A stretch of DNA of 64,000 nucleotides. Origin: Pseudomonadota bacterium. GTDB lineage: Bacteria; Pseudomonadota; Alphaproteobacteria; Paracaedibacterales; CAIOTO01. Location: positions 1,238-65,237 of the forward strand of contig JAZKDQ010000015.1 in assembly GCA_040387495.1 (NCBI GenBank), in the 5' to 3' direction. The notes below the pieces were generated by a model. The model was not told the DNA's origin and did not search any database. It saw nothing but the letters and a program-made list of their open reading frames with translations. Shown here piece by piece: positions 2,322 through 49,672 of the stretch (the first letter of the stretch is position 1; each line of letters starts with the position of its first letter). Position numbers and translations under genes: made by a program.

Positions 2322-3020
2322 ATGTTTTGTAGTATGACATCATTTCCTGCTTATCCTCTTATAGCTCCATCGTTACTGGCAGCCGATCCTTTATGTCTTG
2401 AAGATGAGATTAAGGCGGTAGAAGCTGCAGGTGCTGATCTATTGCATATTGACATTATGGATGGGCATTATGTTCCAAATTTAACCTTTGGTCCCCATTA
2501 TGTAAAAGCCATAAAATCAATGACCAATTTGCCACTTGATGTGCATTTGATGGTGTCTTCACCTTCTGCAGTTGTGCCCTGGTTTCTGGACGCCGGCGCT
2601 AATTGGGTTAGTTTTCATCCGGAAACCGAGGCGCATCCATATCGCTTACTTCAATACATTCAATCTAATGGTGTTCGATCAGGAGTTGTGCTGAATCCTG
2701 GCTCGCATTGGCAGATAGTAGAGCCCTTATTACCTGTACTTGATTTTGTTTTATTGATGTCTGTAAATCCAGGTTTTGGCGGGCAATTATTTATCCCAGA
2801 AATATCTTTAAAAATAGCTCCACTTCTTGCGTTAAAGCCAGATCTCATTATTGAAATTGACGGTGGTGTAAATTCGAAAAATGCACCTGGTTTAATTGAA
2901 AAAAATGCACATGTCCTTGTGGCAGGTTCTTCTATCTTTGGACAAAAAGAAAAAATAGCGTTAAAATTATATCGTGTGGAAACATACCGTGCCGCAATTA
3001 ATACACTCCGAGGAAATTAG
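2322..3020 (+). CDS. rpe: Ribulose-phosphate 3-epimerase
   Basis: IAPSLLAAD, HIDIMDGHYVPNLTFG, DVHLMV, MSVNPGFGGQ and DGGV blocks. The true start may be the ATG at 2334. Confidence 0.93.
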   Translation: MFCSMTSFPAYPLIAPSLLAADPLCLEDEIKAVEAAGADLLHIDIMDGHYVPNLTFGPHYVKAIKSMTNLPLDVHLMVSSPSAVVPWFLDAGANWVSFHPETEAHPYRLLQYIQSNGVRSGVVLNPGSHWQIVEPLLPVLDFVLLMSVNPGFGGQLFIPEISLKIAPLLALKPDLIIEIDGGVNSKNAPGLIEKNAHVLVAGSSIFGQKEKIALKLYRVETYRAAINTLRGN

Positions 3021-3025
3021 AATTT

Positions 3026-4780
3026 ATGTTTAATTCGCTAAAAGGCATATTTTGGAAGAACCTTAGGCGAAGCCATGTTTATGGAGTTAGCTTGCTTGGC
3101 CGAAAAACGCCTCGCATTGGTCTTCTAATAAATGACCCATGGCAAGGAAACATTCATTTTGGTGAGGCGATACTATTAGGTGACTTACATTTAAATAATC
3201 GTCGTTTTACGTCCAGTGACATGTTGATTGCACTTGAAAAACCTCAAAACATCCATGAGCCTATGGCTGCTTACATGCAAAGTTTTATGTTTTTGTATGA
3301 TTTAAATGCCATTAGCGGTAATGCAGGTCGTAAGCGTGCACGGCAACTTATTGAACATTGGATACGATTACATCATTCATGGGCTCATAAAAGTTGGAAT
3401 TCTTTTGCATGGAAGCCAGGTGTCGTTGGGCTGAGGCTCTCTGTATGGCTAAGTTTGCATGATTTTTATGCAAGTACGGCAGATGAGGATTTCAAAAGAC
3501 TTCTTACGACAAGTTTTGACAAACAATTGCGTTATTTAAGACGCCATTGGATGGAAGAAAAAGATAAACTTCATCAATTTTGGGCACTTAAGGGTGTTAT
3601 TTTAGGAGAATCACTTAGAAGCGAAAAAAGGAACGTAGATCGTGTCGAACGTTATATGAATATTTTATCGGCATTAATTCACGACCAAATTTTGCCTGAT
3701 GGTGGCCATATAAGCAGAAGTCCGCTTTTGCATTGGCGTTTTTTACGTGATTTAATTGATATAAGAACAAGCCTAAGATCTCATTTAGGGACAAGTGTTC
3801 AATTAGAAAAAGCTGAAAAAAATTTGCAAGAATGCATTCAGAAAATGACGCCGTTATTAAGGTTTCTTCGGCATGGTGATGGTGGTTTGGCTTCTTTCGA
3901 TGGTACGTTGTCACCTTTTGCGCACGGGCTTTGCATAGGCGTTACTGCAGATGCCGTTGATAGTGTGTTGACACTAACAGATGCAGAAACGACGCGACCA
4001 CCGCAACGAGCGCCAGATAGCGGCTATGAACGTTGCGCAAGTCGCAATTCTATTGTTTTAGTGAATACATTTCCTGGTTCTAGTTATAATCAAAACCCGC
4101 CATATTCTAACGAAGCATTTCGAGAGCCAGGCCTTGAATTGCTTGGTATTGAGTGGAGCTTTGGTAGACATCGTTTTATACATAAAGGTGATGTTGCGAT
4201 TAAACTTAGTCCTAGTAGTAACTGTGAACATGATTTTAAAGATAAATGGGTTACTAATTTAGATCCCCAGCTGACTCAATTAGTTATAAAAAGACATAAT
4301 AAAGAAGGTCATAACTATATCGCTTTTGATGCAGAATATGTTGGCGAAGACACTTCCTTCTATTGGCAGCGCCATATTTATTTATCACCAAAAGGTGAAG
4401 AATTACGTGGTCATGATACGTTTCGAATTTCACATGATGCGACCATTGGGGTGCGATTTGAAATGAACCCGTTATTTACAATTGAAGGTGAAGGTGAAAA
4501 AATTTATTTAACGCTGCAGTCTGATACTAATAGTCGGCAAGGAAGGAAGAATGAGAAAACCCAGGAACAGCTTCATGTGAAACCGCAGGAGAAAAGCAAG
4601 CAACGTAAAACGGTAGAGCCTGAACGATGGTTCTTCCGTAGCATTGGGTGTGATGACGTTATTACGACGTTAGCAGACGAAGAAAACCGTACGTTGTTAT
4701 TAATAAAACAATGTGAAGCACACCGTTCATATACATTGAAGTGGTCTTTTAGTCAAACCAATAGTGTTAATGAAATATAG
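3026..4780 (+). CDS. Heparinase II/III-like family protein (alphaproteobacterial conserved type)
   Basis: 584 aa. LPDGGHISRSPLLH and LRHGDGGLASFDG match blocks I recall from the alphaproteobacterial heparinase II/III-like proteins. There is a basic low-complexity insert near the C-terminus. Family assignment is from memory only. Confidence 0.6.
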   Translation: MFNSLKGIFWKNLRRSHVYGVSLLGRKTPRIGLLINDPWQGNIHFGEAILLGDLHLNNRRFTSSDMLIALEKPQNIHEPMAAYMQSFMFLYDLNAISGNAGRKRARQLIEHWIRLHHSWAHKSWNSFAWKPGVVGLRLSVWLSLHDFYASTADEDFKRLLTTSFDKQLRYLRRHWMEEKDKLHQFWALKGVILGESLRSEKRNVDRVERYMNILSALIHDQILPDGGHISRSPLLHWRFLRDLIDIRTSLRSHLGTSVQLEKAEKNLQECIQKMTPLLRFLRHGDGGLASFDGTLSPFAHGLCIGVTADAVDSVLTLTDAETTRPPQRAPDSGYERCASRNSIVLVNTFPGSSYNQNPPYSNEAFREPGLELLGIEWSFGRHRFIHKGDVAIKLSPSSNCEHDFKDKWVTNLDPQLTQLVIKRHNKEGHNYIAFDAEYVGEDTSFYWQRHIYLSPKGEELRGHDTFRISHDATIGVRFEMNPLFTIEGEGEKIYLTLQSDTNSRQGRKNEKTQEQLHVKPQEKSKQRKTVEPERWFFRSIGCDDVITTLADEENRTLLLIKQCEAHRSYTLKWSFSQTNSVNEI

Positions 4781-4982
4781 TGTTTATATAGGACTGATTT
4801 AAAGTCACTTTTCTCGTTTTAATAAGTAAGGTGTTTTTCTTCGTTATTTTTAATTATTATTATAATTTTTGGATGCGATTTAATAGCCCATACATTATAC
4901 CTCATGATTTTCCATCTCCGCCCTTGCATATCTCCGTTAAAATGTTTATTTCTTAAACATAGCCTTATATATAAAAAGAACA

Positions 4983-7868
4983 ATGCAACAAACAATTCAA
5001 ATTCGTGGTGCACGCGAACACAATTTAAAAAATATCAATGTGGATATTCCACGCGATAAACTCGTTGTGATCACTGGACTTTCAGGGTCAGGTAAATCAT
5101 CGCTTGCATTTGATACACTTTATGCTGAAGGGCAGCGTCGTTACGTTGAAAGTTTATCATCCTATGCTCGCCAGTTTTTACAACTCATGGAAAAACCAGA
5201 TGTTGATTCAATTGAGGGCTTAAGTCCGGCTATTTCGATTGAACAAAAAACAACATCTAAAAACCCGCGCTCGACAGTTGGTACGGTAACCGAGCTGTAC
5301 GACTATATGCGTTTGCTGTTTGCGCGGGTAGGTGTGCCACATTCACCAGCAACTGGTCTACCGATTGAAGCACAAATCGTATCCCAAATGGTGGATCGTG
5401 TTATTGAGATTCCAGCGAAGACCCGCTTGATGCTGTTAGCACCGATTGTTCGTGGCCGTAAGGGCGAGTATAAAAAAGATTTACAAGATTTACTTAAAAA
5501 AGGCTTTCAGCGTGTTAAAATTGATGGCAAAATTTATACCCTTGAAGAAGTACCTGAACTTAAAAAAAATATTAAGCATGATATAGCTGTCATTGTTGAT
5601 CGTTTTGTCATCCCTGAAGGAGAAGATCGTCGCGAATTTATGACACGGTTGGCTGATTCCTTTGAAACAGCGCTTGCATTAAGTAATGGGTTGGTATGGG
5701 TTGAAAATGCTGATACAGCTGAATCAATCACTTTTTCATCAAAATTTGCGTGCCCTACTTCTGGTTTTACGCTTGATGAAATTGAGCCAAGACTCTTTTC
5801 GTTTAACAGTCCGCAAGGTGCATGCCCCACATGTGATGGCCTGGGTCTAGAGATTGTTTTTGATCCTAATTTGATTGTACCTAATCGTGCATTAAGTGTG
5901 CATAATGGCGCGATTGCGCCTTGGGCAGAAGAATCGAATGCTGGAAAACGTGTTACAGCTACTCGCGAATATTATTTGCAGATGCTTGAATCCGTTGTGA
6001 ATCATTATGGTGGGTCAGCAAAGGTGCCCTATGCAGAATTATCCGAAAACATCAAAAATGCATTATTATATGGTTCCGGCACTGAGCTTATTCCTATTGT
6101 TTATAGTGACGGCAATAAGAATTACATCACCAAGAAAATTTTTGAAGGTGTAATACCAAACCTTAAACGTCGTTGGCAAGATAGCGAAAGTGAATGGGTT
6201 CATGAAATGCTTGGGCGCTATCAAAATGAGCATGCGTGTCATGCCTGTGGTGGGTTGCGTCTTCGTCCCGAAGCATTGTGTGTTAAAATCAATGATAGAA
6301 ACATTGCGGAAGTTTGCAATTTCTCAATTAATGACGCTTATGAATGGTTTAACACATTAACCCTCACACCAAAACAAGAACAAATTGCCACCCGGATTTT
6401 AAAAGAAATACGTAATCGGTTGATGTTTTTGGTAAATGTGGGGCTCGATTATTTGACATTATCACGTGCAGCGGGAACACTTTCTGGCGGTGAAAGCCAA
6501 CGTATACGCTTAGCATCGCAAGTAGGGTCTAGTTTGACAGGGGTATTGTATGTTTTGGATGAGCCTTCGATTGGTCTTCACCAGCGCGATAATGACCGCT
6601 TGCTTGAAACGTTAAAACACCTAAGAGACATTGGGAATACTGTCGTTGTGGTTGAACATGACGAAGATGCTATTCGAACCGCTGACTATGTCATTGATAT
6701 GGGACCTGAAGCTGGTGCAAGAGGTGGAGAGATAATTGCTCAAGGCACGCCTGAAGAAGTAACTAATAATCCAAACAGTATTACAGGGTTATATCTTCGT
6801 GGCATTAAAAGCATTCCTATCCCAGCTAAGCGACGCTCAGGGCACGAAGGAAAATCTTTAAGTCTTTTTGGGGCGCGTGCAAATAATTTGCATAACGTGA
6901 ACGTAACGATTCCATTAGGTACATTCACATGCGTGACGGGCGTATCAGGCGGGGGCAAGTCAACTCTTGTTATTGAAACATTGTATAAAGCTCTATCGAA
7001 GGCAGTTGCACATGGACGTGAAATGCCAGGTGAACATGATCGTCTTGAAGGCGTAGACTTTATTGATAAAATTATTGATATTGATCAGTCACCGATTGGT
7101 CGTACACCGCGATCAAATCCGGCAACTTACATTGGCTGCTTTACACCGATTCGTGAATGGTTTGCTGGATTGCCAGAATCAAAAACACGTGGCTATGCGG
7201 CTGGACGCTTTTCGTTTAACGTCAAAGGTGGACGTTGTGAAGCATGTCAGGGTGATGGCGTAATTAAGATTGAAATGCACTTTTTGCCAGATGTTTATGT
7301 GAAATGTGACCAATGTCACGGTAAACGCTATAATCGTGAGACGTTGGACATCCAATACAAAAACAAAAATATTGCTGATATCTTAGATATGACAGTGGAT
7401 GAAGCTGTTGTCTTCTTTGAAGCGCATTCACAAGTGCGTGAGAAATTAAGATGCTTGCAAGAAGTAGGCCTAGGCTATGTCAAAGTAGGGCAGTCTGCAA
7501 CGACTCTCTCCGGTGGTGAAGCGCAACGTGTAAAATTAGGAAAAGAACTGTCGCGACGCGCAACAGGGAAAACCTTATATATATTGGATGAACCAACAAC
7601 TGGTTTGCATTTTGATGATGTACGTAAATTGCTAGAGGTATTGCATACCCTTGTTGATCAAGGCAATACTGTTTTAGTGATTGAACATAATCTTGAAGTG
7701 ATTAAAACGGCGGATTGGATCATTGATATGGGGCCAGAGGGCGGCTCTGGCGGCGGGCATATTGTTGCTGTTGGAACGCCTGAAAGCGTAATTAATGTTG
7801 AGAAGAGTTATACGGGGCAGTATCTTAAGCCATATCTTGAACGACATGCGTTAAAAGAGGCTATTTGA
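4983..7868 (+). CDS. uvrA: Excinuclease ABC subunit A
   Basis: 961 aa. Starts [12 protein letters not shown]... and has [14 protein letters not shown], two ABC modules (LSGGE.QR twice) and zinc-finger cysteines. Confidence 0.97.
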
Positions 7869-7979
7869 TATTTTTTTTAAAATAGCTTATAGAGATTAGG
7901 CCTACCTAAAAAAATGCTCCCATTTTTAGGGAAGAACATTGTAAGATGAGTTAAACAAAATACATAATCTTAAAGCTAT

Positions 7980-8549
7980 ATGATGCAATTACCTTTTTCC
8001 GAACGTGATTTTTTATACATGACTTATGGTGCTCTTTTGGATGCTCCTGTTGAGCCAATGCGGATACACTATCATCAAGATCTCTATGCACGGTGGCAAG
8101 CTGGTGAACGTATTATATGGAACTGGGCTGCCTTTTTTTGCGGACTGGTGGGTCTGGGCGGTGTATGGATGATTTACCGTCGCTTATATCTCTTATCCTT
8201 TGTATACCATCTCATAACGATATTCTTATTTTCAACATGTGTTTATTTTTTTTCGCAGCATTTAGCTGATCAGTTTAAACTCGCTATTTTTTGCATTAAT
8301 CTTGCCCTTGCAGTTCTGAGTGGGTTATTTGCAAATACGATCCAACTTACATGGCTCGCTGCGTGGAAGCAGAGATTTTCTAAGCATAAAATTCCCCGTG
8401 GTGGCGATATGGGAACCGTCTTTGCTTATTTCTCAATAATTCTTATATCATTAGGTAATGTACAGGGGAAATTTTCAGCAATGCTCACAGTAATGCTCTT
8501 CAGTTTATTTGTGTTAGCCCATTACGTATATTATGAACATGAGCTTTAA
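7980..8549 (+). CDS. Multi-pass membrane protein, DUF2628-like
   Basis: 189 aa. The IIWNWAAFFCGLVGLGGVWMIYRRLY block resembles DUF2628, followed by several hydrophobic helices. The family call is weak. Confidence 0.5.
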   Translation: MMQLPFSERDFLYMTYGALLDAPVEPMRIHYHQDLYARWQAGERIIWNWAAFFCGLVGLGGVWMIYRRLYLLSFVYHLITIFLFSTCVYFFSQHLADQFKLAIFCINLALAVLSGLFANTIQLTWLAAWKQRFSKHKIPRGGDMGTVFAYFSIILISLGNVQGKFSAMLTVMLFSLFVLAHYVYYEHEL

Positions 8550-8553
8550 TAAA

Positions 8554-8835
8554 CTAGTGAAGTTCAAAACTAACAGCGGGCGTCACTATGGTATTAGATA
8601 TTAAATTTCCAGCAGTAGCTACACGAACAATTTCAATGCGACCATCAATATTTTTATGCCAGAACTCAATAAAGGCAGTTAACCGTGGGAACACTGGTGG
8701 AAGATCAAATTCCTGCCATAGGTATGTCTGGAGCAATAATGGATGATCAGGCAAATGGTAAATAATTTCCGCAGTTGTCAGGCAATAACCATTAAGGGCA
8801 CGGAAGAATTCACTTTCATAATCAGCTAAATGCAT
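8554..8835 (-). CDS. Usg-family protein
   Basis: The ORF track gives 8554..8871. A likely start is the ATG at 8835 (MHLADYES...). GYCLTTAEIIYHLPDHPLLLQTYLWQEFDLPPVFPRL matches the Usg (PF06233-type) block as I recall it. Confidence 0.65.
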   Translation of the reverse strand: MHLADYESEFFRALNGYCLTTAEIIYHLPDHPLLLQTYLWQEFDLPPVFPRLTAFIEFWHKNIDGRIEIVRVATAGNLISNTIVTPAVSFELH

Positions 8836-9012
8836 AAATACCTCCTGATTTATGAGGATTGCATAAAGCAAAATTCCGCAACTTTATATTTAAAGTGTGT
8901 ACTTTAAGTCTTAAAAATTCGTTAAAATATCAGGTTTTCGCATTTGTTACTGTACGCACGTAATTTCATCGCCTAAAATGCACTATGATTTAAATTGTAA
9001 ATGTGACTCTTA

Positions 9013-10950
9013 ATGACTCCTAGTTCTAATGCACTTCGTTTTCTTAGTATTGATGCCGTAGAAGCAGCTAAATCTGGTCATCCAGGTATGCCAATGGGTA
9101 TGGCTGATGTGGCAACAGTACTCTTTCAAGAATTTCTGACATTTAATCCAAAAGATCCTCATTGGCCCAATCGTGATCGTTTTGTGCTGTCCGCTGGCCA
9201 TGGATCTATGCTGCTGTATAGTTTGCTTCATTTGTGTGGCTATCCTGATATGACGTTGGATCAATTAAAAAACTTTCGTCAATGGGGAAGCATAACGCCA
9301 GGTCATCCTGAATATGGACACACACCTGGGGTGGAAACAACGACGGGGCCGCTAGGGCAGGGGCTTGCTACAGCTGTTGGTCTAGCGTTAGGTCAAGAAA
9401 TGATAGCTGCACGCGTTGGTCAAGACGTTATTAATCATAAAACATATGTGATTTGCGGTGATGGCGACTTGATGGAGGGTATTAGCCAAGAGGCTGTATC
9501 TTTTGCAGGGCATCTTAAACTTAAAAATCTTATTGTCTTGTTTGATGATAACGGCATAACAATTGATGGGAAGACGTCGCTTTCAACGAGTGATGATCAT
9601 TTAGTGCGCTTGTCGGCGAGTGGTTGGAAGACAACAGCGATCGATGGGCATGATGAACAAGCCATCCGCGAAGCCCTGATGTGGGCGCAAACAAATGATG
9701 CACCGACATTGATTGCATGCAAGACGACGATTGCTTTTGGTGCACCAACGAAGGCGGGCACATCGGCAAGTCACGGTAGTCCACTTGGAGTGGATGAAAT
9801 TCAAAGAACACGCGAAAAACTTAATTGGCCGCATGCACCATTCGAAGTACCAGATGATGTGCGTGCTGTTTGGATGAAAGCATCGATGCGCCACCTCCCA
9901 ACATATGGCGCATGGATGGCAAAGTTTAAAGGGTTGCCGGCTGAAGCAAAACACTTGCTGACTGCAGATAAAGCTACTGCCGATGTTACTGCATTAAAGC
10001 AAACTTTTCTGGATGAAAAACCAAATCAAGCGACACGTATTTTGTCACAGCGTGTGCTTGATGCATTGTCGCCTGTTATGCCTCACCTTGTTGGTGGGTC
10101 GGCTGATTTAACGGGATCAAATAATACGAAAGCAAAAGGTCAGGCGCCAGTTGATGCCGAGGACTTTAGTGGCAGTTACATCTATTTTGGCATTCGTGAA
10201 CACGCAATGGCGGCAATGCTTAATGGGCTTTCTTTATATGGATTTACACCCTACGGCGGTACGTTCTTAGTGTTTAGTGATTATTTACGCCCAAGTCTTC
10301 GCTTGTCAGCATTGATGAAGCAACCTGTGATTTATGTGCTTACACACGATTCCATCGGCCTTGGTGAAGATGGTCCAACGCACCAACCAGTTGAGCATTT
10401 AGCCGCATTACGTGCGATTCCAAACCTGAATGTATTTCGCCCTGCGGATAGTATTGAAACGGCAGAATGTTGGGAACTGGCATTAAATACGCATGAGACA
10501 CCAAGTGTACTTGCGCTAACGCGTCAAAATTTACCAACGTTAAGATCTACTGCTCATGAAAACCTCACCTCATTCGGTGGATATATTATTTCTGAGGCAA
10601 AAGAACCACGTCAGGCAACGTTGATTGCAACAGGGTCAGAAGTATCACTCGCCATTGAAGCTCAATCTGCATTGCACGTCCTAGGTTTTAACGTGGCTGT
10701 TGTATCAATGCCTTGTTTTGAGTTATTTGCACAGCAAACACCTGAGTATCGAGCCACTGTATTAGGAGATGTGCCACGCATTGGTATCGAAGCTGCCGAG
10801 GAGATGGGCTGGTCTAAGTACTTAAGAGAAACCGATACATTCATTGGTATGATTGGATTTGGTGCATCAGCACCTGCAAGCACATTATTTGAAAAATTTG
10901 GAATTACACAACAGGCTATTATTGAAGCCGTAAAAAGGAGAATTGCATAA
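9013..10950 (+). CDS. tkt: Transketolase
   Basis: 645 aa. SGHPGMPMGMADV, GDGDLMEGIS, HDSIGLGEDGPTHQPVE. The stop overlaps the gap start by 1 nt (TAATG). Confidence 0.95.
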   Translation: MTPSSNALRFLSIDAVEAAKSGHPGMPMGMADVATVLFQEFLTFNPKDPHWPNRDRFVLSAGHGSMLLYSLLHLCGYPDMTLDQLKNFRQWGSITPGHPEYGHTPGVETTTGPLGQGLATAVGLALGQEMIAARVGQDVINHKTYVICGDGDLMEGISQEAVSFAGHLKLKNLIVLFDDNGITIDGKTSLSTSDDHLVRLSASGWKTTAIDGHDEQAIREALMWAQTNDAPTLIACKTTIAFGAPTKAGTSASHGSPLGVDEIQRTREKLNWPHAPFEVPDDVRAVWMKASMRHLPTYGAWMAKFKGLPAEAKHLLTADKATADVTALKQTFLDEKPNQATRILSQRVLDALSPVMPHLVGGSADLTGSNNTKAKGQAPVDAEDFSGSYIYFGIREHAMAAMLNGLSLYGFTPYGGTFLVFSDYLRPSLRLSALMKQPVIYVLTHDSIGLGEDGPTHQPVEHLAALRAIPNLNVFRPADSIETAECWELALNTHETPSVLALTRQNLPTLRSTAHENLTSFGGYIISEAKEPRQATLIATGSEVSLAIEAQSALHVLGFNVAVVSMPCFELFAQQTPEYRATVLGDVPRIGIEAAEEMGWSKYLRETDTFIGMIGFGASAPASTLFEKFGITQQAIIEAVKRRIA

Positions 10951-11954
10951 TGACATTAAAGATCGCAATTAATGGTTTTGGTCGTATTGGTCGGATGGTT
11001 TTACGTGCAATGGCTGAAAATCCGCGTCCAGGAATTCAAATTGTTGCCATCAATGATTTGGGTTCATTGGCAGATAATGCCCACATGTTTCGTTATGATT
11101 CCGTGCATGGTCAGTATCGTGGAACGCTCAATTTAGGTAATGATACAATTGATATCGGTCATGGGCCAATTAAAGTTGTGGCAGAACCTAATCCAGAAAA
11201 ACTTCCTTGGGCTGAAATGGGCATTGATCTTGTGTTTGAATGCTCTGGTCGATTTACGAAACGCGATGATGCAGCTAAGCACCTAATAGCGGGGGCAAAA
11301 CGCGTGATCGTGTCAGCACCGGCAGATGGTGCGGATTTAACCGTTGTGTATGGGGTGAATCACACCCAAATTAATGCATCACATACAGTATTATCAAATG
11401 CCTCATGTACAACAAACTGTTTAGCACCGATTGCATTTGCGCTTAATAATGCTATTGGGATTGATTCTGGTTTTATGACGACGATTCATGCGTATACAGG
11501 GGATCAACGATTGGTAGATACCATTCATAAAGATTTACACCGTGCACGCGCAGCAGCCATGTCAATGATTCCAAGTTCGACTGGTGCAGCAAAAGCTGTT
11601 GGTTTGGTGCTGCCAGAATTAAAAGGGCGTCTTGATGGCACAGCGATTCGTGTACCAACAGCTAATGTATCAGTTGTAGATTTCAAATTTATTGCAAAAC
11701 GTAAAACAAATGTTGATGAGGTGAATCAAGCGCTGTGTGCAGCAGCTGAAGGGCAATTAAAAGGGATTTTGGGCGTAAATACAGTGCCATTGGTATCATG
11801 TGATTTTAATCATGATGATCGCAGCTCTATAGCAGATTTGCCACAAACACACGTCGTTGATGGCCAGCTTGTTCGTGTATTGTCTTGGTATGACAATGAA
11901 TGGGGCTTTTCAAATCGTATGTTGGATGTCGCTGCATATTGCGCGAAGCAATAG
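10950..11954 (+). CDS. gap: Glyceraldehyde-3-phosphate dehydrogenase
   Basis: 334 aa. INGFGRIGR, SNASCTTNCLAP and WYDNEWGFSNR. Confidence 0.95.
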   Translation: MTLKIAINGFGRIGRMVLRAMAENPRPGIQIVAINDLGSLADNAHMFRYDSVHGQYRGTLNLGNDTIDIGHGPIKVVAEPNPEKLPWAEMGIDLVFECSGRFTKRDDAAKHLIAGAKRVIVSAPADGADLTVVYGVNHTQINASHTVLSNASCTTNCLAPIAFALNNAIGIDSGFMTTIHAYTGDQRLVDTIHKDLHRARAAAMSMIPSSTGAAKAVGLVLPELKGRLDGTAIRVPTANVSVVDFKFIAKRKTNVDEVNQALCAAAEGQLKGILGVNTVPLVSCDFNHDDRSSIADLPQTHVVDGQLVRVLSWYDNEWGFSNRMLDVAAYCAKQ

Positions 11955-12006
11955 CTTAATTTTCTCAATCATCGTGAGAAAGAACAAGGCACTCTGATAA
12001 TTCTAA

Positions 12007-12048
12007 CTTTTGACACACCATCTTGCTCGTCAAAAGTGATTTTTTCTG
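12007..12048 (+). terminator. Hairpin plus T-run downstream of gap
   Basis: CTTTTGAC (12007-12014) pairs with GTCAAAAG (12029-12036) across a 14-nt loop and is followed by tgATTTTTTct. The stem is AT-rich, so the call is only moderate. Confidence 0.45.
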
Positions 12049-12072
12049 AAAAGTGCGAAAGTGCGCAGATCT

Positions 12073-12109
12073 GGGAGTAGAAAATCACAAAATTGATTTT
12101 TTTACTCCC
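12073..12109. other. Long near-perfect hairpin (about 15 bp stem, 6-nt loop)
   Basis: GGGAGTAGAAAATCA-caaaat-TGATTTTTTTACTCCC, with one bulged T and one G-T pair. On the + strand it is followed by accTTTT. It lies just 3' of the minus-strand ORF at 12143-12355. Confidence 0.35.
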
Positions 12110-12142
12110 ACCTTTTAAAAAAAATAAACCAGCTGTTTTCTC

Positions 12143-12355
12143 TTAATCACTCACACTACCCATTGCCGAGAAACATTTTAGGAGAATGTAAGGAATGATA
12201 ACTCCAAGTTCTGGATGCCCAAAAGGTGATCCTGCCACGCCCAAAATGCTGGAAACTCCGAACAGTACACCTGCTGCCATTTCCACCTGTAATATATTTT
12301 GAATATCTCTCATAAAAATCCTTTTTTTGTCAGCAAATGTTATCAAGTGAATCAT
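12143..12355 (-). CDS. Small hypothetical membrane protein inside the gap-duplication insert
   Basis: A 70-codon ORF, or 56 codons from the internal Met. It has two hydrophobic segments (AAGVLFGVSSILGVAG and LGVIIPYILLKCF). No family recognised, so it could be spurious. Confidence 0.3.
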   Translation of the reverse strand: MIHLITFADKKRIFMRDIQNILQVEMAAGVLFGVSSILGVAGSPFGHPELGVIIPYILLKCFSAMGSVSD

Positions 12356-12610
12356 GCTATCCGTTAATTTTAAAAAAAATAGTTAGATGAAAGGTTTGTT
12401 GTTAAACTAAGAACATTTACACTCTTACTCAATCATTATCAAAGTGTTCTCTGCAACCCATCAAGACTTAGAATATGGAGGGCAGTCTTATTTCCTGGGG
12501 TGTAGTAAATAGACAACTTGAAATTTTAACAGAAAAATCAATTTTTCTTTTTATTACGCAAAAGAATAATAAAAAGAAATTATCTTCACTATCATTAAAT
12601 TCTTATGCAA

Positions 12611-12712
12611 GTCGTTGATGGACAGCTTGTTCGTGTGTTGTCTCGGTATGATAACGAGTGAGGTTCTTCAAATCATATGTTGGATGTTGCTGCGTATTGC
12701 GCGAAGCAGTAG
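12611..12712 (+). pseudogene. Dead duplicate of the last 34 codons of gap
   Basis: It aligns without indels to 11853-11954, with 13 mismatches by hand count. It translates to VVDGQLVRVLSRYDNE*GSSNHMLDVAAYCAKQ*, with an in-frame TGA at 12659-12661. Confidence 0.85.
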
Positions 12713-12733
12713 CATTTTTGGGGGGTGGATAAT

Positions 12734-14089
12734 TTATTGATCATCCAAACTGCGTGTTGTTTTCTTTGGTGTAATAACAACAGCACCATCAACAAAATGT
12801 AGCGTCACTGATTCGGCATTTAATGGAAAATTTGCTGCTTTCGTAACAACATGATCGTTTACTGACGTCCACACAAATCCCTTTTCTAAAATCTTAGAAT
12901 AAGATGATTGTTCAAGGCGCCCAGTCAAATAAGAGAACTCTTGCTCTTTTGAAGCCATAACTGAACGTGTTGCACGAAAGAAGCGCTCTGAAAGATGCCC
13001 AAAACATTGCAAATGCATTTCGAGCGATGTTGCTGGATGTTTTAGTACCTGACTTTGTACGCGGTGTGTCAGAAGTGTTAAATAATGTTTCATGGCACGT
13101 GACAAGCGATCGGATCGATCATCAAGGCGTTGCATTGCTGATTCAAGAATATGGTGTGGTTGTGGCAGCCCACGTGCAAGGCCTTTAACGTTCGTCCATT
13201 CTGTGCGCAACATACGCATTGTTAGCTGGTGCATACGTTCTTGCATGTGTTGCAGTGCAAATAATAATTGTGAGCGTACCGGTGTTGCAAGCTCGGCGGC
13301 GGCCGTTGGGGTAGGAGCTCTGACATCAGCGGCATAGTCAATCAGTGTCGTATCAGTTTCATGACCAATCGCTGAAATAAGTGGGATAATGCTTTCCGCC
13401 GCAGCGCGTACAACAGCTTCTTCATTAAATGTCCAAAGATCCTCAAGGCTGCCGCCGCCACGTGCCACGATTATCACATCTGGCCGCATGGACGCATCAA
13501 GCACATTCATACCACGAATGGCGAGTGCTACTTGCTCGATTGAGCCTGGTCCCTGAACTTGCGCTGGCCAAATAATGACTTCACACGGGAAACGATCGGC
13601 TAAGCGATGCAAAATATCACGGATAACCGCTCCTGTAGGAGATGTAACAATACCAATGCGTTTTGGAAATGTTGGGATTGGGCGTTTTCTCGCAAATAAT
13701 CCTTCGGCTTCAAGGCGTGCTTTGCGTTCCATCAGCACTTGCATGAGTGCACCTTTACCGGCTGCCTCGACACGCTCAACGACGACTTGGTATTTTGATC
13801 GACCAGGGTAAGTTGTAATGCGCCCTGTGATAATAACTTCAAGGCCATCTTCCAACTGAACAGCCATAGGTGTGCCGCGCCATGCGACAGCATCAATCAC
13901 GGCATCGTCATCTTTTAAAGCGAAATACGAATGGCCGGATGTGTGTTTTTTATAACCGCTGATTTCACCGCGAATTTTGATATTGCGAAAGCCTTCCTCG
14001 ACGTATTTTTTTAAGCATAAGCTGAGTTCACTGACGGACAGTGTGTCAGGGCCAGAGGGTGCAAAATCAATAATACGCTGGGCTTCCAT
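12734..14089 (-). CDS. xseA: Exodeoxyribonuclease VII large subunit
   Basis: 451 aa. Has an N-terminal OB fold (IKIRGEISGYKKHTSGHSYFALKD), GIVTSPTGAVIRDI, ARGGGSLEDLW and SAIGHETD. Confidence 0.93.
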   Translation of the reverse strand: MEAQRIIDFAPSGPDTLSVSELSLCLKKYVEEGFRNIKIRGEISGYKKHTSGHSYFALKDDDAVIDAVAWRGTPMAVQLEDGLEVIITGRITTYPGRSKYQVVVERVEAAGKGALMQVLMERKARLEAEGLFARKRPIPTFPKRIGIVTSPTGAVIRDILHRLADRFPCEVIIWPAQVQGPGSIEQVALAIRGMNVLDASMRPDVIIVARGGGSLEDLWTFNEEAVVRAAAESIIPLISAIGHETDTTLIDYAADVRAPTPTAAAELATPVRSQLLFALQHMQERMHQLTMRMLRTEWTNVKGLARGLPQPHHILESAMQRLDDRSDRLSRAMKHYLTLLTHRVQSQVLKHPATSLEMHLQCFGHLSERFFRATRSVMASKEQEFSYLTGRLEQSSYSKILEKGFVWTSVNDHVVTKAANFPLNAESVTLHFVDGAVVITPKKTTRSLDDQ

Positions 14090-14216
14090 TATTTTTTATT
14101 TTTCTTATGTAGTTTTTCTTTGGTGTCATTCTAAAACGAGTGTGAGTGCAATACAAAGGAATTGTGAGATGCCTTTTTGTGATTTAAACATAAAATGTGA
14201 GCCGTAAGACAGTAAA

Positions 14217-14284
14217 AGGATATTTTTAGGATATAAAAATCAAAATATCCTAATTTTAGGATATGATAATGATACTCATCCTAT
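14217..14284. promoter_or_regulatory. Cluster of AGGATAT repeats (candidate operator) in the xseA/alaX-like divergent spacer
   Basis: AGGATAT occurs at 14217-14223, 14228-14234 (11-bp spacing) and 14258-14264. Its complement ATATCCT is at 14245-14251. Together these form the 9+2+9 palindrome ATATCCTAA-tt-TTAGGATAT at 14245-14264. A further inverted AGGAT core is at 14278-14284. Confidence 0.4.
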
Positions 14285-14331
14285 GGCAGAAAATTTAAAA
14301 TTATTTTGTGATTATATTACAGGATTTTATT

Positions 14332-15036
14332 ATGACTATTTCATTATTTTCAAACGATACATATTTATTTGAATCTCACTCAATTGTTAGTGATATGAGG
14401 CACGATGAAAGAGGTTTTTATATTGCGCTTGATCAAACTATTTTTTACCCACAAGGGGGCGGGCAGCCTTCTGACCAAGGTGTATTAAAATATTATGATA
14501 TGGAAATTCAGATATTTCATGTTAAACAAATTGGCAATGAAATTAGACATTATGTAAGCACGCTACCTGATTTACCTGCTGGCACGTGTGTTATGTCTCA
14601 CATCGATAAAGAAAGACGTATTATTAATGCGCGATATCATACAGCAGCTCATTTGATTGGAAATATCGCAGAGCAAATTTGCCCTACTTTAAAGGCTGTT
14701 AAGGGGCATTCTTTCCCTGGCGAAGCCTATGTTGAATTTCATGGATCAGAAATACCCCACGCACTTATACTTATTGAGTCTTCAAATAAGGCAATTCATG
14801 ATTGTTTGCCAACAAGAACATTTGAAATTAATGCAAAAGAATTTGAAGAACAATTCTATAAATTTCCTTACAACATCCCCAACAATAAAATGTTTCGCGT
14901 CATGCAAATCAAAGGTTACCCGCCTGTACCATGTGGCGGCACCCATCTATCAAATTGCTCTGAAATTGGTTATATTCAAGTAGGCAAAATCAAGGCAAGA
15001 AATAACATCTTGCGCATTTCATATGAGCTAAAATGA
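14332..15036 (+). CDS. AlaX-type alanyl/threonyl-tRNA editing domain protein
   Basis: The ORF track starts at GTG 14308, and the ATG at 14332 is a more likely start. IFYPQGGGQPSDQG, the HxxxH motif (RYHTAAHLIGN) and CGGTHL are the tRNA_SAD/AlaX signatures. Confidence 0.8.
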   Translation: MTISLFSNDTYLFESHSIVSDMRHDERGFYIALDQTIFYPQGGGQPSDQGVLKYYDMEIQIFHVKQIGNEIRHYVSTLPDLPAGTCVMSHIDKERRIINARYHTAAHLIGNIAEQICPTLKAVKGHSFPGEAYVEFHGSEIPHALILIESSNKAIHDCLPTRTFEINAKEFEEQFYKFPYNIPNNKMFRVMQIKGYPPVPCGGTHLSNCSEIGYIQVGKIKARNNILRISYELK

Positions 15037-15806
15037 GATTTGTTTCATTAATTGACGCTGGAGGACAGAAAACGATAACCATCGATGCTGATGCACAGAT
15101 TTTTCGTTTAGAACTTGATGGTAATGTGCGTGAAACACGCTTAAAAGCGCATGCCGCCGATGTGCTTTATATGCTTTTTAATAAGCATCCGCAGCCACTT
15201 AAGTACGATGAAATTATTGATGTTTTTAAGGCGCATAAATTGACCATAACGGATGTAACGCGCATGCATCGAAAACTATCAGAGATACGCATTTTTCTTC
15301 AACGATTTCACCCCTCATTAGGTGAGATTCTGCTTAATACGCGAGGCGTTGGTTATAGCTTGCCTTTGCGTTTAAAAAACATGCATCAGTTACAACTCAC
15401 ATCAGAGACTACGTTTAAGAATACTAAAATAACGGCGCATATGCTCGTTTTAAAATCTCTTATTAATGACGCTATTTTACAAACATCAAATCATAAAGTG
15501 ATTAGACATCCCCAAGGTTACGTTATTGATAGAAATCCAATTCGTTCAATTCTGGTAGAAAAAATTATGTTATTTAATCAGTCCTCTGACGCTATTTTAA
15601 ATGAAATCCGTGTCCATGAGGCTGACTTTACAGGAATAAGAGTACAGTATTTGCTTGCAAAACTTAGGACATACGTTGGCATTGCACGTATTTCGGAGTA
15701 TCCCATTTCCGAAGCACAGTGGATTGATTGGTTTTCACAAGAAGTATGGACGCTTTATGATGATTTACAAAAGCTGGTTAAGCTGGTGGAATCACAGGCA
15801 CATTAG
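15033..15806 (+). CDS. Receiver-less winged-helix (OmpR/CadC-type trans_reg_C) putative transcriptional regulator
   Basis: 257 aa. The N-terminal part fits the OmpR/PhoB C-terminal wHTH pattern (LYMLFNKHPQPLKYDEIID...MHRKLSEIRIFLQRF...LLNTRGVGYSL). The C-terminal 150 aa or so are unassigned. The start overlaps the alaX-like stop (ATGA at 15033-15036). Confidence 0.6.
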   Translation: MRFVSLIDAGGQKTITIDADAQIFRLELDGNVRETRLKAHAADVLYMLFNKHPQPLKYDEIIDVFKAHKLTITDVTRMHRKLSEIRIFLQRFHPSLGEILLNTRGVGYSLPLRLKNMHQLQLTSETTFKNTKITAHMLVLKSLINDAILQTSNHKVIRHPQGYVIDRNPIRSILVEKIMLFNQSSDAILNEIRVHEADFTGIRVQYLLAKLRTYVGIARISEYPISEAQWIDWFSQEVWTLYDDLQKLVKLVESQAH

Positions 15807-15808
15807 AG

Positions 15809-16684
15809 TTACGACTTCGTTCTTATCGACAAGACATCTTGTCCATTTTCACCGCATGCAATATGAAATGTATTAGCATCAATTGCATCAATGACTGCTC
15901 CTGACTGGTGGGTTTTCCCAACGGAATTCTCAATAACTCGGCTTTGTAGGATACTTTTCACTTCTCCATTAACAACACCAAAAGCAGGAGGATATTGTGG
16001 CGAAGGTTGCAGTGCACGCACCAGATTATGAATGGAAATAGCTGATTGCATCCAATTAATTTCGCCATCTTTTGCGCTTCGTCCACCAAAATAGGTTGCC
16101 TGGCTTATGTCTTGCACGATACGTGGTGCGGTTTGTGTGGCAATTAAAGGGAGGGAGCGTTTTAAAACAGTAACAGCAAGTGTATTCATGCGGTTCATAA
16201 CTGTACCAGCTGTGTCATCCGCGCTAATTGGTGTTGATTCTTGATCGACGATATCACCAGCATCTGCTGCCTTTACCATATGATGCAAAGTGACACCTGT
16301 TTCAGACTCACCATGAATCATTGCCCAGTTCACAGGGCAACGACCGCGATATTTTGGCAGCAAGGATCCATGCATATTATAAGCACCAAGGGGAGGGTGG
16401 TTTAAAATGACTTCTGGGATCATATTGCGATAGTAGAACGAGAATATAGCATCAGCCTGGTAGGCGTTGATTTGATTTTGAATATTCTCGTCTTTAAGTG
16501 TTTCTGGCGTAAGTACATCTATATCATGACGAATGGCCAATTCTTTGACAGAATCAAACCAAATATATTCCTTCGGATTGTCTTCATGTGTAACAACAGC
16601 CGCAATGGTATAGTATGTTTCTTCGATTATATACCTTAGGCAATCATAACCCAGCTGACTATAGGCGAATACAATACAGCGCAT
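15809..16684 (-). CDS. arnA: UDP-4-amino-4-deoxy-L-arabinose formyltransferase, stand-alone ArnA N-terminal domain
   Basis: The ORF track gives 15809..16714, with a likely start MRCIVFAY at 16684. Colinear with the E. coli ArnA N-domain as I recall it (VFAY, THEDNP, IFSFYYR, NMHGSLLPKYRGRCPVNWAMIHGESETGVTLHHMVKAADAGDIV). It stops at about 290 aa, so there is no decarboxylase domain. Confidence 0.85.
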   Translation of the reverse strand: MRCIVFAYSQLGYDCLRYIIEETYYTIAAVVTHEDNPKEYIWFDSVKELAIRHDIDVLTPETLKDENIQNQINAYQADAIFSFYYRNMIPEVILNHPPLGAYNMHGSLLPKYRGRCPVNWAMIHGESETGVTLHHMVKAADAGDIVDQESTPISADDTAGTVMNRMNTLAVTVLKRSLPLIATQTAPRIVQDISQATYFGGRSAKDGEINWMQSAISIHNLVRALQPSPQYPPAFGVVNGEVKSILQSRVIENSVGKTHQSGAVIDAIDANTFHIACGENGQDVLSIRTKS

Positions 16685-16685
16685 A

Positions 16686-17615
16686 TTAATCCTCGTAGGT
16701 GTCACGAATTTCATATCGTGGGCGATGACTCAGGTTGAGTGCTAAGCGCCCTAAATATTCTCCGACAAGCCCAATGCCAACAATAACCACGCTAATAAGG
16801 AAAAACTCAATTGCGAAAAGCGTAAAGATTCCTTCAGCTTCCGGGCCAATGATTACGCGCCGAATCAATAAATAAGCCACCAAGAAACCACTTAAAGCGG
16901 AGGTTAACATGCCAAACATTGTAAATAATTGTAAGGGTGCAATTGAAAAACTCGTAATAAGATCAAAGTTCAATCGAATAAGCATATAGAGGTTATATTT
17001 TGATTCACCTGCGGCACGTTCAGCATGGATCACTTCAACCTCTGTTGGATTTTGTGCAAGTTTATAAGCCAATGCAGGAATGAATGTTGAATGTTCGTTG
17101 CCAGCCACAATTTTATCAATGATTGACCGATGATATGCACGTAACATGCAGCCTTGATCACGCATATGTATGTCTGTAATTTTTTCGCGTACCCAGTTTA
17201 CAGCGCGTGAAACATATGTTCTAAAAAACGTATCTTGGCGTTTATCACGATAGCTACCAACATAATCATAGCCTTCATCCATTTTTGTCAGTAATTTATG
17301 AATTTCCTCAGGGGGATTTTGAAGATCCGCATCCAAGGTGATAACAGTTTCTCCACGTGCTTTTGAAAATGCAGCTATGATTGCCATATGCTGTCCAAAG
17401 TTTCCTTTGAAATCTATTATGCGGATTTTGCCTTTATGTTCTGCACTTGCTTCGCGTAATAACTCTAAACTTTGGTCTTTACTGCCATCATTTGTAAATA
17501 TAATCTCATATGTTTTTTTTAAGGCATCAAGGCTTGTTATTAAACGATTAATGAGCTGTGGGATATTAGCCTCTTCATTATAAACGGGCACAACAATTGA
17601 TAATTGAAGCGTCAT
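16686..17615 (-). CDS. arnC: Undecaprenyl-phosphate 4-deoxy-4-formamido-L-arabinose transferase (GT2)
   Basis: 309 aa. SIVVPVYNEE, NDGSKD, ITLDADLQNPPEEI, GCMLRAYHR, STFIPALA, ESKYN and two C-terminal TM helices with GEYLGR, colinear with E. coli ArnC. Confidence 0.88.
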   Translation of the reverse strand: MTLQLSIVVPVYNEEANIPQLINRLITSLDALKKTYEIIFTNDGSKDQSLELLREASAEHKGKIRIIDFKGNFGQHMAIIAAFSKARGETVITLDADLQNPPEEIHKLLTKMDEGYDYVGSYRDKRQDTFFRTYVSRAVNWVREKITDIHMRDQGCMLRAYHRSIIDKIVAGNEHSTFIPALAYKLAQNPTEVEVIHAERAAGESKYNLYMLIRLNFDLITSFSIAPLQLFTMFGMLTSALSGFLVAYLLIRRVIIGPEAEGIFTLFAIEFFLISVVIVGIGLVGEYLGRLALNLSHRPRYEIRDTYED

Positions 17616-17748
17616 AAAAAATCTCCTAGTGAAAGATGCTATAATAACTTACCCAAAGAGCTATTAGTGCACGCAAAACAAAGTATATCACTTTTATAAG
17701 TTATATTGAGTGTTGGTACAAGCATAAGGTCTGTGAAATAGAAAAAAG

Positions 17749-49100: not shown

Positions 49101-49672
49101 ATATCCGTGAAGTTGGTGTTGAATTGTACCAAACATTGCTTCACGAAGCGATTATGATGGCACGCGCTGTTGAGGCGAATAGCAATGATGGCATTGAAAT
49201 TGGATTAAACGATTGGACGCCGCAAATTAACCTGGGTGTGCCTGTATTGATTCCTGAAAGTTATGTGACGGATTTGGGACTTAGGCTTAACCTATATCGC
49301 CGTGTTGCTAATTTAGCCACCCGTGAAGAGATCGATGCTTTTGCGGCTGAACTCATTGATCGGTTTGGGAAATTACCTGTCGAAGCCGCAAATTTACTTG
49401 ATGTTGTTGAACTTAAAGGACTTTGCCGCCAAGCACATATTGAAAAACTTGATGCTGGACCAAAGGGATTATTGATTACATTCCGTAACAATGAATTTAA
49501 AGAACCAACAAAGCTAATTCATTATTTGCAAAAGCCAGAAGTGTATAAAGCAAGTGCCATTAAAATTCGACCTGATCATAAATTATTCTTTGGTCGTGAT
49601 TTTGGAAATCCATTACAACGCCGAAATGGTGTACGGCAGATTGTGAAGGATTTGGTGGGTTTGTGCATTTAA
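46193..49672 (+). CDS. mfd: Transcription-repair coupling factor
   Basis: 1159 aa. It has a UvrB-homology N-terminus, a CarD-like region (VHRDHGIGRY), helicase motifs (GDVGFGKTEVA, DEEQHFG, LTATPIPRT) and a TRG-motif region. Confidence 0.96.
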   Translation: MEVVISHGIKTQGGISSAYTAFFCLEELTKNKSSLVLVVPRDERIHDLADQLKSVAPMHTILSFPGWDCLPYDRVSPSSDTTHTRLSTLYALLAEKSPFILITSVSGLGQRLPPPSLMKTHDYTLSIGDKVSRESLLSLLIEKGCNRVEAVYEMGEFAVRGSLIDVFAPGSSSPARLDFFGDELESIKCFDPITQKTNSSAELADLSMRAAHEVLLTPDSITQFRQQYRAFFGGSRTFPADDPLYQHISEGRPYPGMEHWLPLFFEQKATLFDYISGQTKILFDDGINIAIQYRLEAIEDYYKARLNPPLGDVTPYNPIAPNLLYWQAADWQHFTETQSITQLSPFKTDEAAFNLKISPSFKAEREQSTTALFDALDTYLSSNKSRNRIITCMSDGTRDRLLHMCEEHHILNIIPYDVFPTDAVLGTARFDETILVIAPFETGFESDRCVLLTEQDILGEKIRRLKTIKRKSDAFFQEISQLSLHDLIVHRDHGIGRYLGLETITVDNCAHDCLTLLYDNDDKLFLPVENIELISRYGDADSLASLDRLGSGAWQLRKARVKKRIQIVADYLIRLAAERSLHTATVLEQTGRDFDDFCARFPYVETDDQLRAIMEVLEDLARGKPMDRLVCGDVGFGKTEVALRAAFIAVMNGKQVAIIVPTTLLCRQHFSNFQKRFQGFPFRVAQLSRLVKASDAKLVHDDVASGRVDIIIATHAILSKKTKFSDLGLVVVDEEQHFGVKQKEKLKQLRSDVHVLTLTATPIPRTLQLSLAGVRDLSLITTPPIDRLAVRTFVMPKDPLVIRESIMREFNRGGQVFYVTPRLEDLPSLKEELQTLVPEVKFAVAHGQLSPTELEDVMTAFYDHQFDVLISTNIIESGIDVPSANTLIIHRCDLFGLSQLYQLRGRVGRSKTQGYAYLTYSPKQKLSANTTKRLQVLQSLDTLGAGFTLASHDLDIRGAGNIVGEEQSGHIREVGVELYQTLLHEAIMMARAVEANSNDGIEIGLNDWTPQINLGVPVLIPESYVTDLGLRLNLYRRVANLATREEIDAFAAELIDRFGKLPVEAANLLDVVELKGLCRQAHIEKLDAGPKGLLITFRNNEFKEPTKLIHYLQKPEVYKASAIKIRPDHKLFFGRDFGNPLQRRNGVRQIVKDLVGLCI

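Follow-up and report, generated by a model that had tools for sequence, protein, structure and literature searches.

A displaced and disabled gap 3' end beside xseA: a probable recombination scar in a Paracaedibacteraceae-like alphaproteobacterium

The DNA analysed here is a 64,000-nt stretch (the window) of contig JAZKDQ010000015.1 (assembly GCA_040387495.1, positions 1,238 to 65,237) from a Pseudomonadota bacterium of the Paracaedibacterales (CAIOTO01), and all coordinates given without a locus name are window positions. Within the window, the glycolytic gene gap is separated from the convergent gene xseA by an orphan insert and by a second, disabled copy of the gap 3' end (Table 1). A repeat search of the window identifies an ungapped 106-nt direct repeat with 87% identity, the copies of which (11850-11955 and 12608-12713) are spaced 758 nt apart. 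No other repeat reaches E<1e-3 when the entire 64 kb are compared with themselves by BLAST, and its E value of 4.8e-30 places this one far beyond chance. The homology starts abruptly at 11850/12608 and ends one base past the stop codon. A preliminary description of the locus had reported that the last 34 codons of gap (11853-11954) are colinear with the downstream copy, with no indels and 13 mismatches, nine of them synonymous, and a codon-by-codon comparison bears this out in full. The mismatches are scattered throughout the repeat, the longest perfect run shared by the copies being 14 nt; 10 of the 13 fall at third codon positions, and 12 of the 13 are transitions. The four remaining differences are all disabling and all lie in the downstream copy, as the same description had stated (in live-copy coordinates, W->R at 11886, TGG->TGA at 11903, F->S at 11908, and R->H at 11917), and they hit the WYDNEWGFSNR stretch that is universally conserved in glyceraldehyde-3-phosphate dehydrogenase (GAPDH). 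Nei-Gojobori counting between the copies gives a synonymous divergence (dS) of 0.65, a non-synonymous divergence (dN) of 0.053, and a dN/dS of 0.08. The stop codon of the dead copy (12710-12712) lies, as had been noted, 21 nt from the stop of the convergent xseA (12734).

Table 1. Features at and around the gap-xseA junction (window positions).
Feature	Position	Strand	Basis or remark
Strain-variable mosaic tract: tkt 3' end, gap, insert, dead gap end, xseA, two open reading frames (ORFs), fmt 3' part	10509..16300		Sliding-window identity and mismatch maps against L082
gap, type I GAPDH, 334 aa, intact, internally mosaic	10950..11954	+	ORF and translation; homologues carry Pfam Gp_dh_N and Gp_dh_C
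L082-like island in gap, same type as the flanks	11441..11818	+	Segment identities (97.6% to L082)
Live repeat copy	11850..11955	+	Last 35 codons of gap, stop codon, 1 nt
Orphan insert between the copies (656 bp between the 102-nt copies)	11956..12607		No likeness in relatives, plasmids, phages, or JGI metagenomes
Hairpin with a U-run after its 9-bp stem; probably the present intrinsic terminator of gap	12006..12045	+	Fold of 12006-12037: dG -9.9, z = -2.1
Strong hairpin of ~16 bp between convergent gap and ORF56	12072..12110		Fold: dG -18.1, z = -3.96
ORF70, two hydrophobic segments, orphan; likelier start gives ORF56 (12146-12313) with AAGGA Shine-Dalgarno	12143..12355	-	ORF list
AT-rich stretch (~28% GC) upstream of the ORF, ending at the abrupt dead-copy junction	12356..12607		Composition profile, sequence
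Dead gap 3' end copy	12608..12713	+	Four disabling substitutions including in-frame TGA 12659-12661
Short spacer with xseA-proximal motif TTTGGGG(GG)TGGATAATT, common to L090, L091, L092	12714..12733		Sequence comparison
xseA, exonuclease VII large subunit, 451 aa, convergent with gap	12734..14089	-	Nearest sampled relative 86% identical

The insert between the two copies is laid out, from the gap side, as a probable gap terminator, a strong hairpin, a convergent small ORF, and a 28%-GC stretch, and it passes abruptly into the dead copy at 12607/12608. The two hairpins and the 70-codon minus-strand ORF of the preliminary description are confirmed by folding and by the ORF list; a consensus terminator scan called neither hairpin, and folding supports both. 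The codon-usage score of ORF56 surpasses that of 96% of shadow ORFs of equal length and falls at the 17th percentile of chunks of real genes, and on this score the ORF is plausibly coding. A word-indexed search of 5.8 billion proteins matched ORF56/70 only to itself, an index-free HMMER scan of 1.84 billion representatives returned itself together with spurious matches to long repetitive proteins, and the ORFs of the insert have no Pfam match. At the nucleotide level, the insert has no match in the retrieved related loci or in plasmid or phage collections, a scan of JGI metagenomes with a 32-mer from the insert was empty, and no Rfam family matches the insert at E<=1 (the only Rfam match in the whole window is a distant tRNA-Pro). 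The insert occurs only once in the window, and it is absent from all 10 of the related metagenomic loci that were compared (cited below by handles such as L082), including the conspecific L082/L083. By these comparisons the insert appears to be DNA foreign to the recipient lineage, as in homology-facilitated illegitimate recombination (HFIR).

The relatives of this bacterium are known from metagenomes. In a species-representative genome collection, from which the clade is absent, the best match to Gap reaches 69% identity, and the protein database holds graded metagenomic relatives, from 98% to 80% Gap identity, that border on Candidatus Paracaedibacteraceae; the source is an uncultured, probably intracellular, Paracaedibacteraceae-like alphaproteobacterium. 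The upstream gene order (uvrA, a 189-aa ORF, usg, tkt, gap) is kept in the closest relatives, and the DNA directly past the gap stop differs in every lineage compared. In L082/L083 it is a 326-aa orphan ORF followed by xseA; in L084/L085, a 300-bp spacer; in L086/L087, the genes apaG, folE, and ccmC; in L088, L093, and L094, unrelated sequence; and in L090, L091, and L092, which have gap and xseA convergent, a 153-bp spacer with a 94-nt palindromic element. The spacer between gap and xseA looks like a site for strain-specific cargo. None of the 10 loci carries a second copy of the gap end. The orphan ORF (326 aa at L082 7079-8059 and 314 aa at L083 4015-4959) has no Pfam match. The palindrome of ~94 nt (L090 1913-2006, L091 3979-4072, L092 ~3140-3233) has the termini CCGTCAT...ATGACGG and the internal sequence ACGTGGYGATCYAG; a related element occurs in L084/L085 (~7046-7145), none was seen in the window or the other loci compared, and by its form it looks like a member of a small repeat family similar to miniature inverted-repeat transposable elements (MITEs) or Rickettsia palindromic elements.

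The convergent relatives also bear on the origin of the dead copy, which the preliminary description took for the ancestral gap end of a convergent gap/xseA arrangement. The spacer of L090-L092 has TTTGGGGTGGATAATTT at its xseA end, immediately outside the stop of that gene, and in the window the same motif stands directly past the stop of the dead copy, so that the dead copy sits where the end of a compact ancestral gap would be, in agreement with that suggestion. A scan of JGI metagenomes with a degenerate pattern for the clade-specific SNRMLDVAAYCAKQ* end was empty. The preliminary description further drew attention to the lack of pgk behind gap. The gene is indeed absent from the window, yet no relative has pgk downstream of gap, and a link between its absence and the scar was accordingly discarded.

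The live gap gene is itself a composite. When triplet informative sites were scored with L082 and L092 as references, the ratio of L082-like to L092-like sites was 55:3 in 11441-11818 and 4:14 in 11819-11945 (Fisher p = 2.5e-9), with a breakpoint put between 11816 and 11819 by a maximum chi-square scan (0 of 10,000 permutations as extreme, p<1e-4). Identity to L082 falls from 97.6% in 11441-11818 to 82-85% downstream (84.9% over the last 93 nt), while identity to L092 rises from 83.9% in 11441-11818 to 88% in 11819-11852 and 93.5% in 11853-11945. As judged from these sites, the phylogenetic signals of the 5' and 3' parts of gap disagree. The non-resident sequence begins at 11819, which is 31 nt upstream of the repeat, as would be expected if a homologous anchor lay upstream of the repeat. 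Such an anchor within homologous sequence is a mark of HFIR, although the switch may instead mark where an independent conversion patch ends.

For the comparison of alleles, the dead copy was taken with its four disabling changes reverted ("repaired"), and differences were counted over 93 nt. The repaired dead copy differs from the live copy at 8 of the 93 positions, from L086 at 10, from L092 at 11, and from L082 at 17, the last of which led to the rejection of the dead copy as an allele of the common ancestor of the window and L082. The live copy differs from L092, its closest known allele, at only 6 of the 93 positions, whereas L092 is otherwise ~84% identical, and GAC at 11894 is found in the live copy and L092 only. 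Over this small sample of 93 nt, the two copies are not each other's closest alleles. When synonymous sites were polarised with two outgroups (L086 and L094), the dead copy had the state backed by both at four sites (11879, 11894, 11897, and 11936) and the live copy at none; at four more synonymous sites L086 and L094 conflict with each other. Wherever a synonymous difference could be polarised, the live lineage has the derived state, several of these states being common to the alleles of other species, and the four non-synonymous changes all arose in the dead copy. Polarity and affinity to L092 agree in suggesting that most of the synonymous divergence would belong to the history of the live allele. 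The L086-like states of the dead copy were also considered as proof of a basal origin; the second outgroup, L094, agrees at some sites only, and these states are no more than suggestive.

These comparisons bear on whether the gap end was instead duplicated in place, with or before the insertion of the 656 bp, by slipped or unequal recombination or by an insertion that duplicated a long staggered target, after which the downstream copy would have decayed neutrally and the live end would later have been overwritten by a conversion patch. Such a history is unlikely, but parts of the evidence fit it. Both copies carry CTT, TCA-AAT, TTG, and, ahead of TAG, an additional C-terminal Gln codon, all of which are missing from most relatives; if two alleles were brought together, these common features indicate that donor and recipient alleles were related rather than remote. 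The clade does show clean conversion patches at the 3' end of gap (L092 versus L091, below), and overwriting would account for the L092-like live end. The preliminary description had argued that neutral decay after duplication in place should not leave so many synonymous differences. The enrichment itself stands (9 of 13), but its decisive force does not, as it becomes borderline once the continuing synonymous evolution of the live copy and the transition bias are modelled. With one copy decaying neutrally and the other accepting synonymous changes only, over equal time, the probability of at least 9 synonymous differences among 13 is 0.011-0.088, varying with the transition bias (kappa), and the 12 transitions among the 13 differences favor the higher values. 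Against duplication in place stand the failure of the copies to be mutual closest alleles, the assignment of all polarisable synonymous differences to the live lineage, and the larger number of events that it needs compared with import. The insert is unlike any local or related sequence, and foreign DNA would be needed regardless. We know of no insertion mechanism that makes a target duplication of ~106 bp.

The second route proposed in the preliminary description was an element that carries a mimic of the 3' end of its target. A remnant of an integrase-type island or prophage, which would have targeted the gap 3' end, supplied a replacement end, and since been mostly deleted together with its integrase, does fit the architecture of an intact 334-aa gap with an alternative 3' end, foreign DNA, and a displaced dead fragment, and the homology stops one base past the stop codon. 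Pfam scans of the insert and of 40 further ORFs of the window (the large ORF 46193-49672 was left unscanned) revealed no integrase, recombinase or remnant of one, transposase, phage gene, or pgk, which upholds the preliminary statement that no integrase remains, and the neighborhoods of the relatives hold no mobile-element genes either. The Pfam matches of the scanned ORFs are to housekeeping genes only, among them cmk, rpe, uvrA, tkt, gap, xseA, fmt, rpsI, rplM, dksA, ruvX, dnaN, recF, gyrB, hisS, and genes of parC/gyrA and rpoH type, and the sole tRNA gene of the window lies 26 kb from the scar. The insert is unmatched in the phage and plasmid collections, and none of the 10 related loci has an element with such repeats at this place. 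An island would also be expected to leave an identical crossover core and foreign sequence starting inside the repeat. The copies have no such core, their longest common run being the 14 nt mentioned above, and the non-resident sequence starts 31 nt outside the repeat; this weighs weakly against an island, as decay could erase a core. Taken together, the element with a mimicked 3' end is improbable. An insertion sequence or MITE does not fit either, in that no inverted repeat pairs the ends of the insert and the duplication is 106 bp rather than short (2-14 bp).

The nearest known parallel of the island type is e14 in E. coli K-12, which provides icd with an alternative 3' end and leaves an icdC fragment (Hill et al. 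1989, described in PMC13626634). In the account given there, the reading frame of icd is kept by an alternative 3' end with mainly synonymous changes and the original fragment persists as a pseudogene beyond the insert, much as at gap. The same account describes e14 as 15 kb long, with its own site-specific recombination and able to excise, whereas the gap insert is 656 bp and has no integrase or phage gene in the scanned window; the dead gap fragment is moreover disabled by a stop codon, unlike icdC as described in that source.

The scar lies within a larger tract that varies between strains. The window is ~98-100% identical to the conspecific L082 over 5000-10508 and ~16300-17700, while the ~5.8 kb between (L082 ~6560-11600) are 75-90% identical or non-homologous, and this drop in identity between near-identical flanks indicates at least one inter-lineage replacement spanning the locus. 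The tkt 3' end (10509-10949) shares 74-77% identity with each of the relatives, whereas these share 79-82% with one another, and the tkt ORF is intact; because this segment is more distant than the relatives are among themselves, at least 10509-10949 appears to have been imported in the window lineage, and its source looks to be a lineage more distant than any sampled. Other conspecific pairs differ in a similar way. Between L084 and L088 identity falls from 96% to 82% at the tkt 3' end, and L091 and L092 are essentially identical apart from 45 substitutions in the last ~420 nt of gap and a patch in xseA (the divergent patches of L092 relative to L091 are 2700-3124 and 3500-4800, with an identical spacer between them). 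On these alignments, the gap 3' end and xseA are recurrent points of inter-lineage exchange in the clade.

Several smaller observations concern the same tract and its surroundings. Mismatches to L082 are clustered at 9777-9791, 10150-10221, and 11672-11684 in otherwise identical sequence, a pattern that suggests very short conversion patches (micro-mosaicism). Beyond xseA, the window encodes an AlaX-like trans-editing domain protein (14308-15036; tRNA-synt_2c C-terminal region and tRNA_SAD) and a 257-aa ORF with a weak Trans_reg_C match (15033-15806). Both belong to the strain-variable tract, being present in the window and L090-L092 and absent from L082 and L084, and L082 has a MORN-repeat protein in place of the two (window 14308-15806). 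Between the divergent xseA and alaX-like ORF, in a region of 26% GC, a 20-nt AT-rich direct repeat occurs twice at 14221-14270 (TATTTTTAGGATATAAAAAT and TAATTTTAGGATATGATAAT, 30 nt apart) and may, to judge from its position and composition, be an operator or promoter motif.

Since the window is a contig of a metagenome-assembled genome (MAG), the arrangement could in principle be an artefact of assembly, either with the gap ends of different strains stitched in tandem or with a chimeric contig behind the mosaic relative to L082. The samples of the GROS21-1 study hold several related lineages (L082, L086/L087, and L092), and the outer junctions of the tract (~10,509 and ~16,300) are supported by this one contig only. 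Nevertheless, an artefact is scarcely credible for the scar. A copy that contains a stop codon and is altered at three invariant GAPDH residues could not stem from a co-occurring functional allele, and the copies share no perfect run longer than 14 nt, which is too little for collapse by an assembler. A separate assembly also reproduces xseA, the dead copy, and the insert exactly (L081, a 2665-bp contig of GCA_040384145.1); it is identical to window 11965-14619 except for a run of N, and its gap-side end lies 10 nt past the stop of the live gap. NCBI and Logan sources both contain a full-length Gap protein identical to that of the window; an exact look-up of the sequence gave no entry. The assembly that contains L081 comprises >64,000 contigs, and its sister assembly GCA_040384245.1 includes L094; each of the two may derive from a host or a community that contains these bacteria.

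The reading that we favor, and hold to be probable on the sequence evidence, is that the scar arose by a homologous crossover in gap combined with an illegitimate join, in the manner of HFIR, with DNA from a related lineage. In the ancestor, gap and xseA would have been convergent and a few tens of bases apart. The incoming DNA from the related lineage would have brought in a gap 3' end that was functional and, behind it, ~650 bp of unrelated sequence with the terminator hairpin and the small convergent ORF. One end of it would have recombined homologously inside gap and the other would have been joined illegitimately 35 codons before the resident stop codon, although a single crossover with a circularised fragment would be an equivalent route to the same product. 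The result would be an intact gap with a donor-type end and a new terminator, and the last 34-35 resident codons would have been stranded beside xseA, where they decayed through the W->R, W->stop, F->S, and R->H changes. The scar has no evident function of its own. The preliminary description had likewise read the locus as a recombination scar, and this reading is supported: of the three outcomes named there as contrary to it, relatives carrying the insert without a duplication were looked for and no relative carries the insert at all, mismatches evenly spread over codon positions were not found, and concordance of the 5' and 3' parts of gap is replaced by a breakpoint. Of its proposal of a crossover inside gap with an illegitimate join downstream, the breakpoint upholds the crossover; that the new gap end and the 656 bp arrived together, that the right-hand join is illegitimate, and how the scar event is ordered relative to the other mosaic patches are points that we infer.

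HFIR is known from Acinetobacter, Streptococcus pneumoniae, and Pseudomonas stutzeri, and conjugation in E. coli provides a further instance (PMC3240628; PMC5361080), with the primary work cited in the latter source (de Vries & Wackernagel 2002; Prudhomme et al. 2002; Meier & Wackernagel 2003). The likeness consists in one end of the import lying in homologous sequence (here the gap breakpoint) and the other being an abrupt non-homologous join, in the gain of novel DNA with the loss of a short recipient stretch, and in the lack of dedicated recombinase genes. In HFIR the illegitimate end usually falls at a few bases of microhomology to the donor. The systems differ in that HFIR was defined experimentally with known donors, whereas the present scar is known from its sequence and belongs to an uncultured, probably intracellular bacterium.

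Several points weigh against the proposed import. No donor is at hand, as no sampled genome has gap followed by this insert, and a functional gap with an end like that of the dead copy was not found in the sampled data. All inferences from the two copies rest on ~100 nt, and the affinity of the live end to L092 (6/93) is not significantly above that of the 5' part of gap (~53/491). The L082-like island at 11441-11818 could be an unrelated conversion patch with a right edge that falls near the repeat by chance, which we regard as improbable, though still deserving some weight. Furthermore, the dead copy is unlike L082 even though the segment upstream of the breakpoint is L082-like, so that extra exchange events are needed. 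The age of the scar adds to this difficulty. The four disabling substitutions over ~78 non-synonymous sites correspond to ~5% neutral divergence, compared with ~0.5% divergence between the window and L082 in the flanks, from which 0.5 substitutions would be expected (P ~0.002, and P ~0.03 even with a threefold higher neutral rate). An origin of the scar in the same recent event that separates the window from L082 was rejected for this reason. The excess of disabling changes, together with the un-L082-like dead copy, indicates that the scar goes back further than the split of the window and L082 and would predate their latest swap or have arrived pre-formed; it would either have evolved in the donor lineage of the whole tract, or L082 would later have replaced its own tract.

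HFIR has also been invoked for the orphaned 3' regions of Rhs and type VI secretion system (T6SS) loci (PMC5361080). In these loci and those of contact-dependent inhibition (CDI), as at gap, an incoming module consists of an upstream anchor and a new 3' end, and the old end is displaced downstream as a dead fragment (PMC5361080). The Rhs, CDI, and T6SS loci are, however, concerned with toxins and immunity, are under diversifying selection, and accumulate arrays of fragments, whereas gap encodes a housekeeping glycolytic enzyme and is followed by a single fragment; both gap ends encode the same peptide, and the 656 bp of orphan cargo show no sign of toxin or immunity functions. A more speculative reading, which we consider very doubtful, is that the gap end, the terminator, and the membrane ORF56 form a minimal integrase-free cassette that spreads between co-occurring endosymbionts by the homologous recombination of the host. 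The conserved gap 3' end would then be a portable anchor and ORF56 would be selectable, for example as a small membrane toxin or exclusion factor. If this were true, the gap-xseA spacer would be a dedicated cargo slot, which might explain the lineage-specific DNA found there.

The gap scar adds an example from a poorly known clade to an already known class of events, and it gives no indication of a new mechanism or function. Its value is that of a well-preserved natural case in which homologous recombination at one end would have dragged unrelated DNA into a housekeeping operon and left the gene unbroken. Three independent conspecific pairs of these Paracaedibacteraceae-like bacteria show patches of species-level divergence at tkt-gap-xseA, so that these presumably host-associated lineages appear to exchange core DNA across species boundaries of ~15% divergence. 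Such exchange bears on how isolated the genomes of symbionts really are, on the reliability of gap or tkt as phylogenetic markers, and on the resolution of strains in MAGs.

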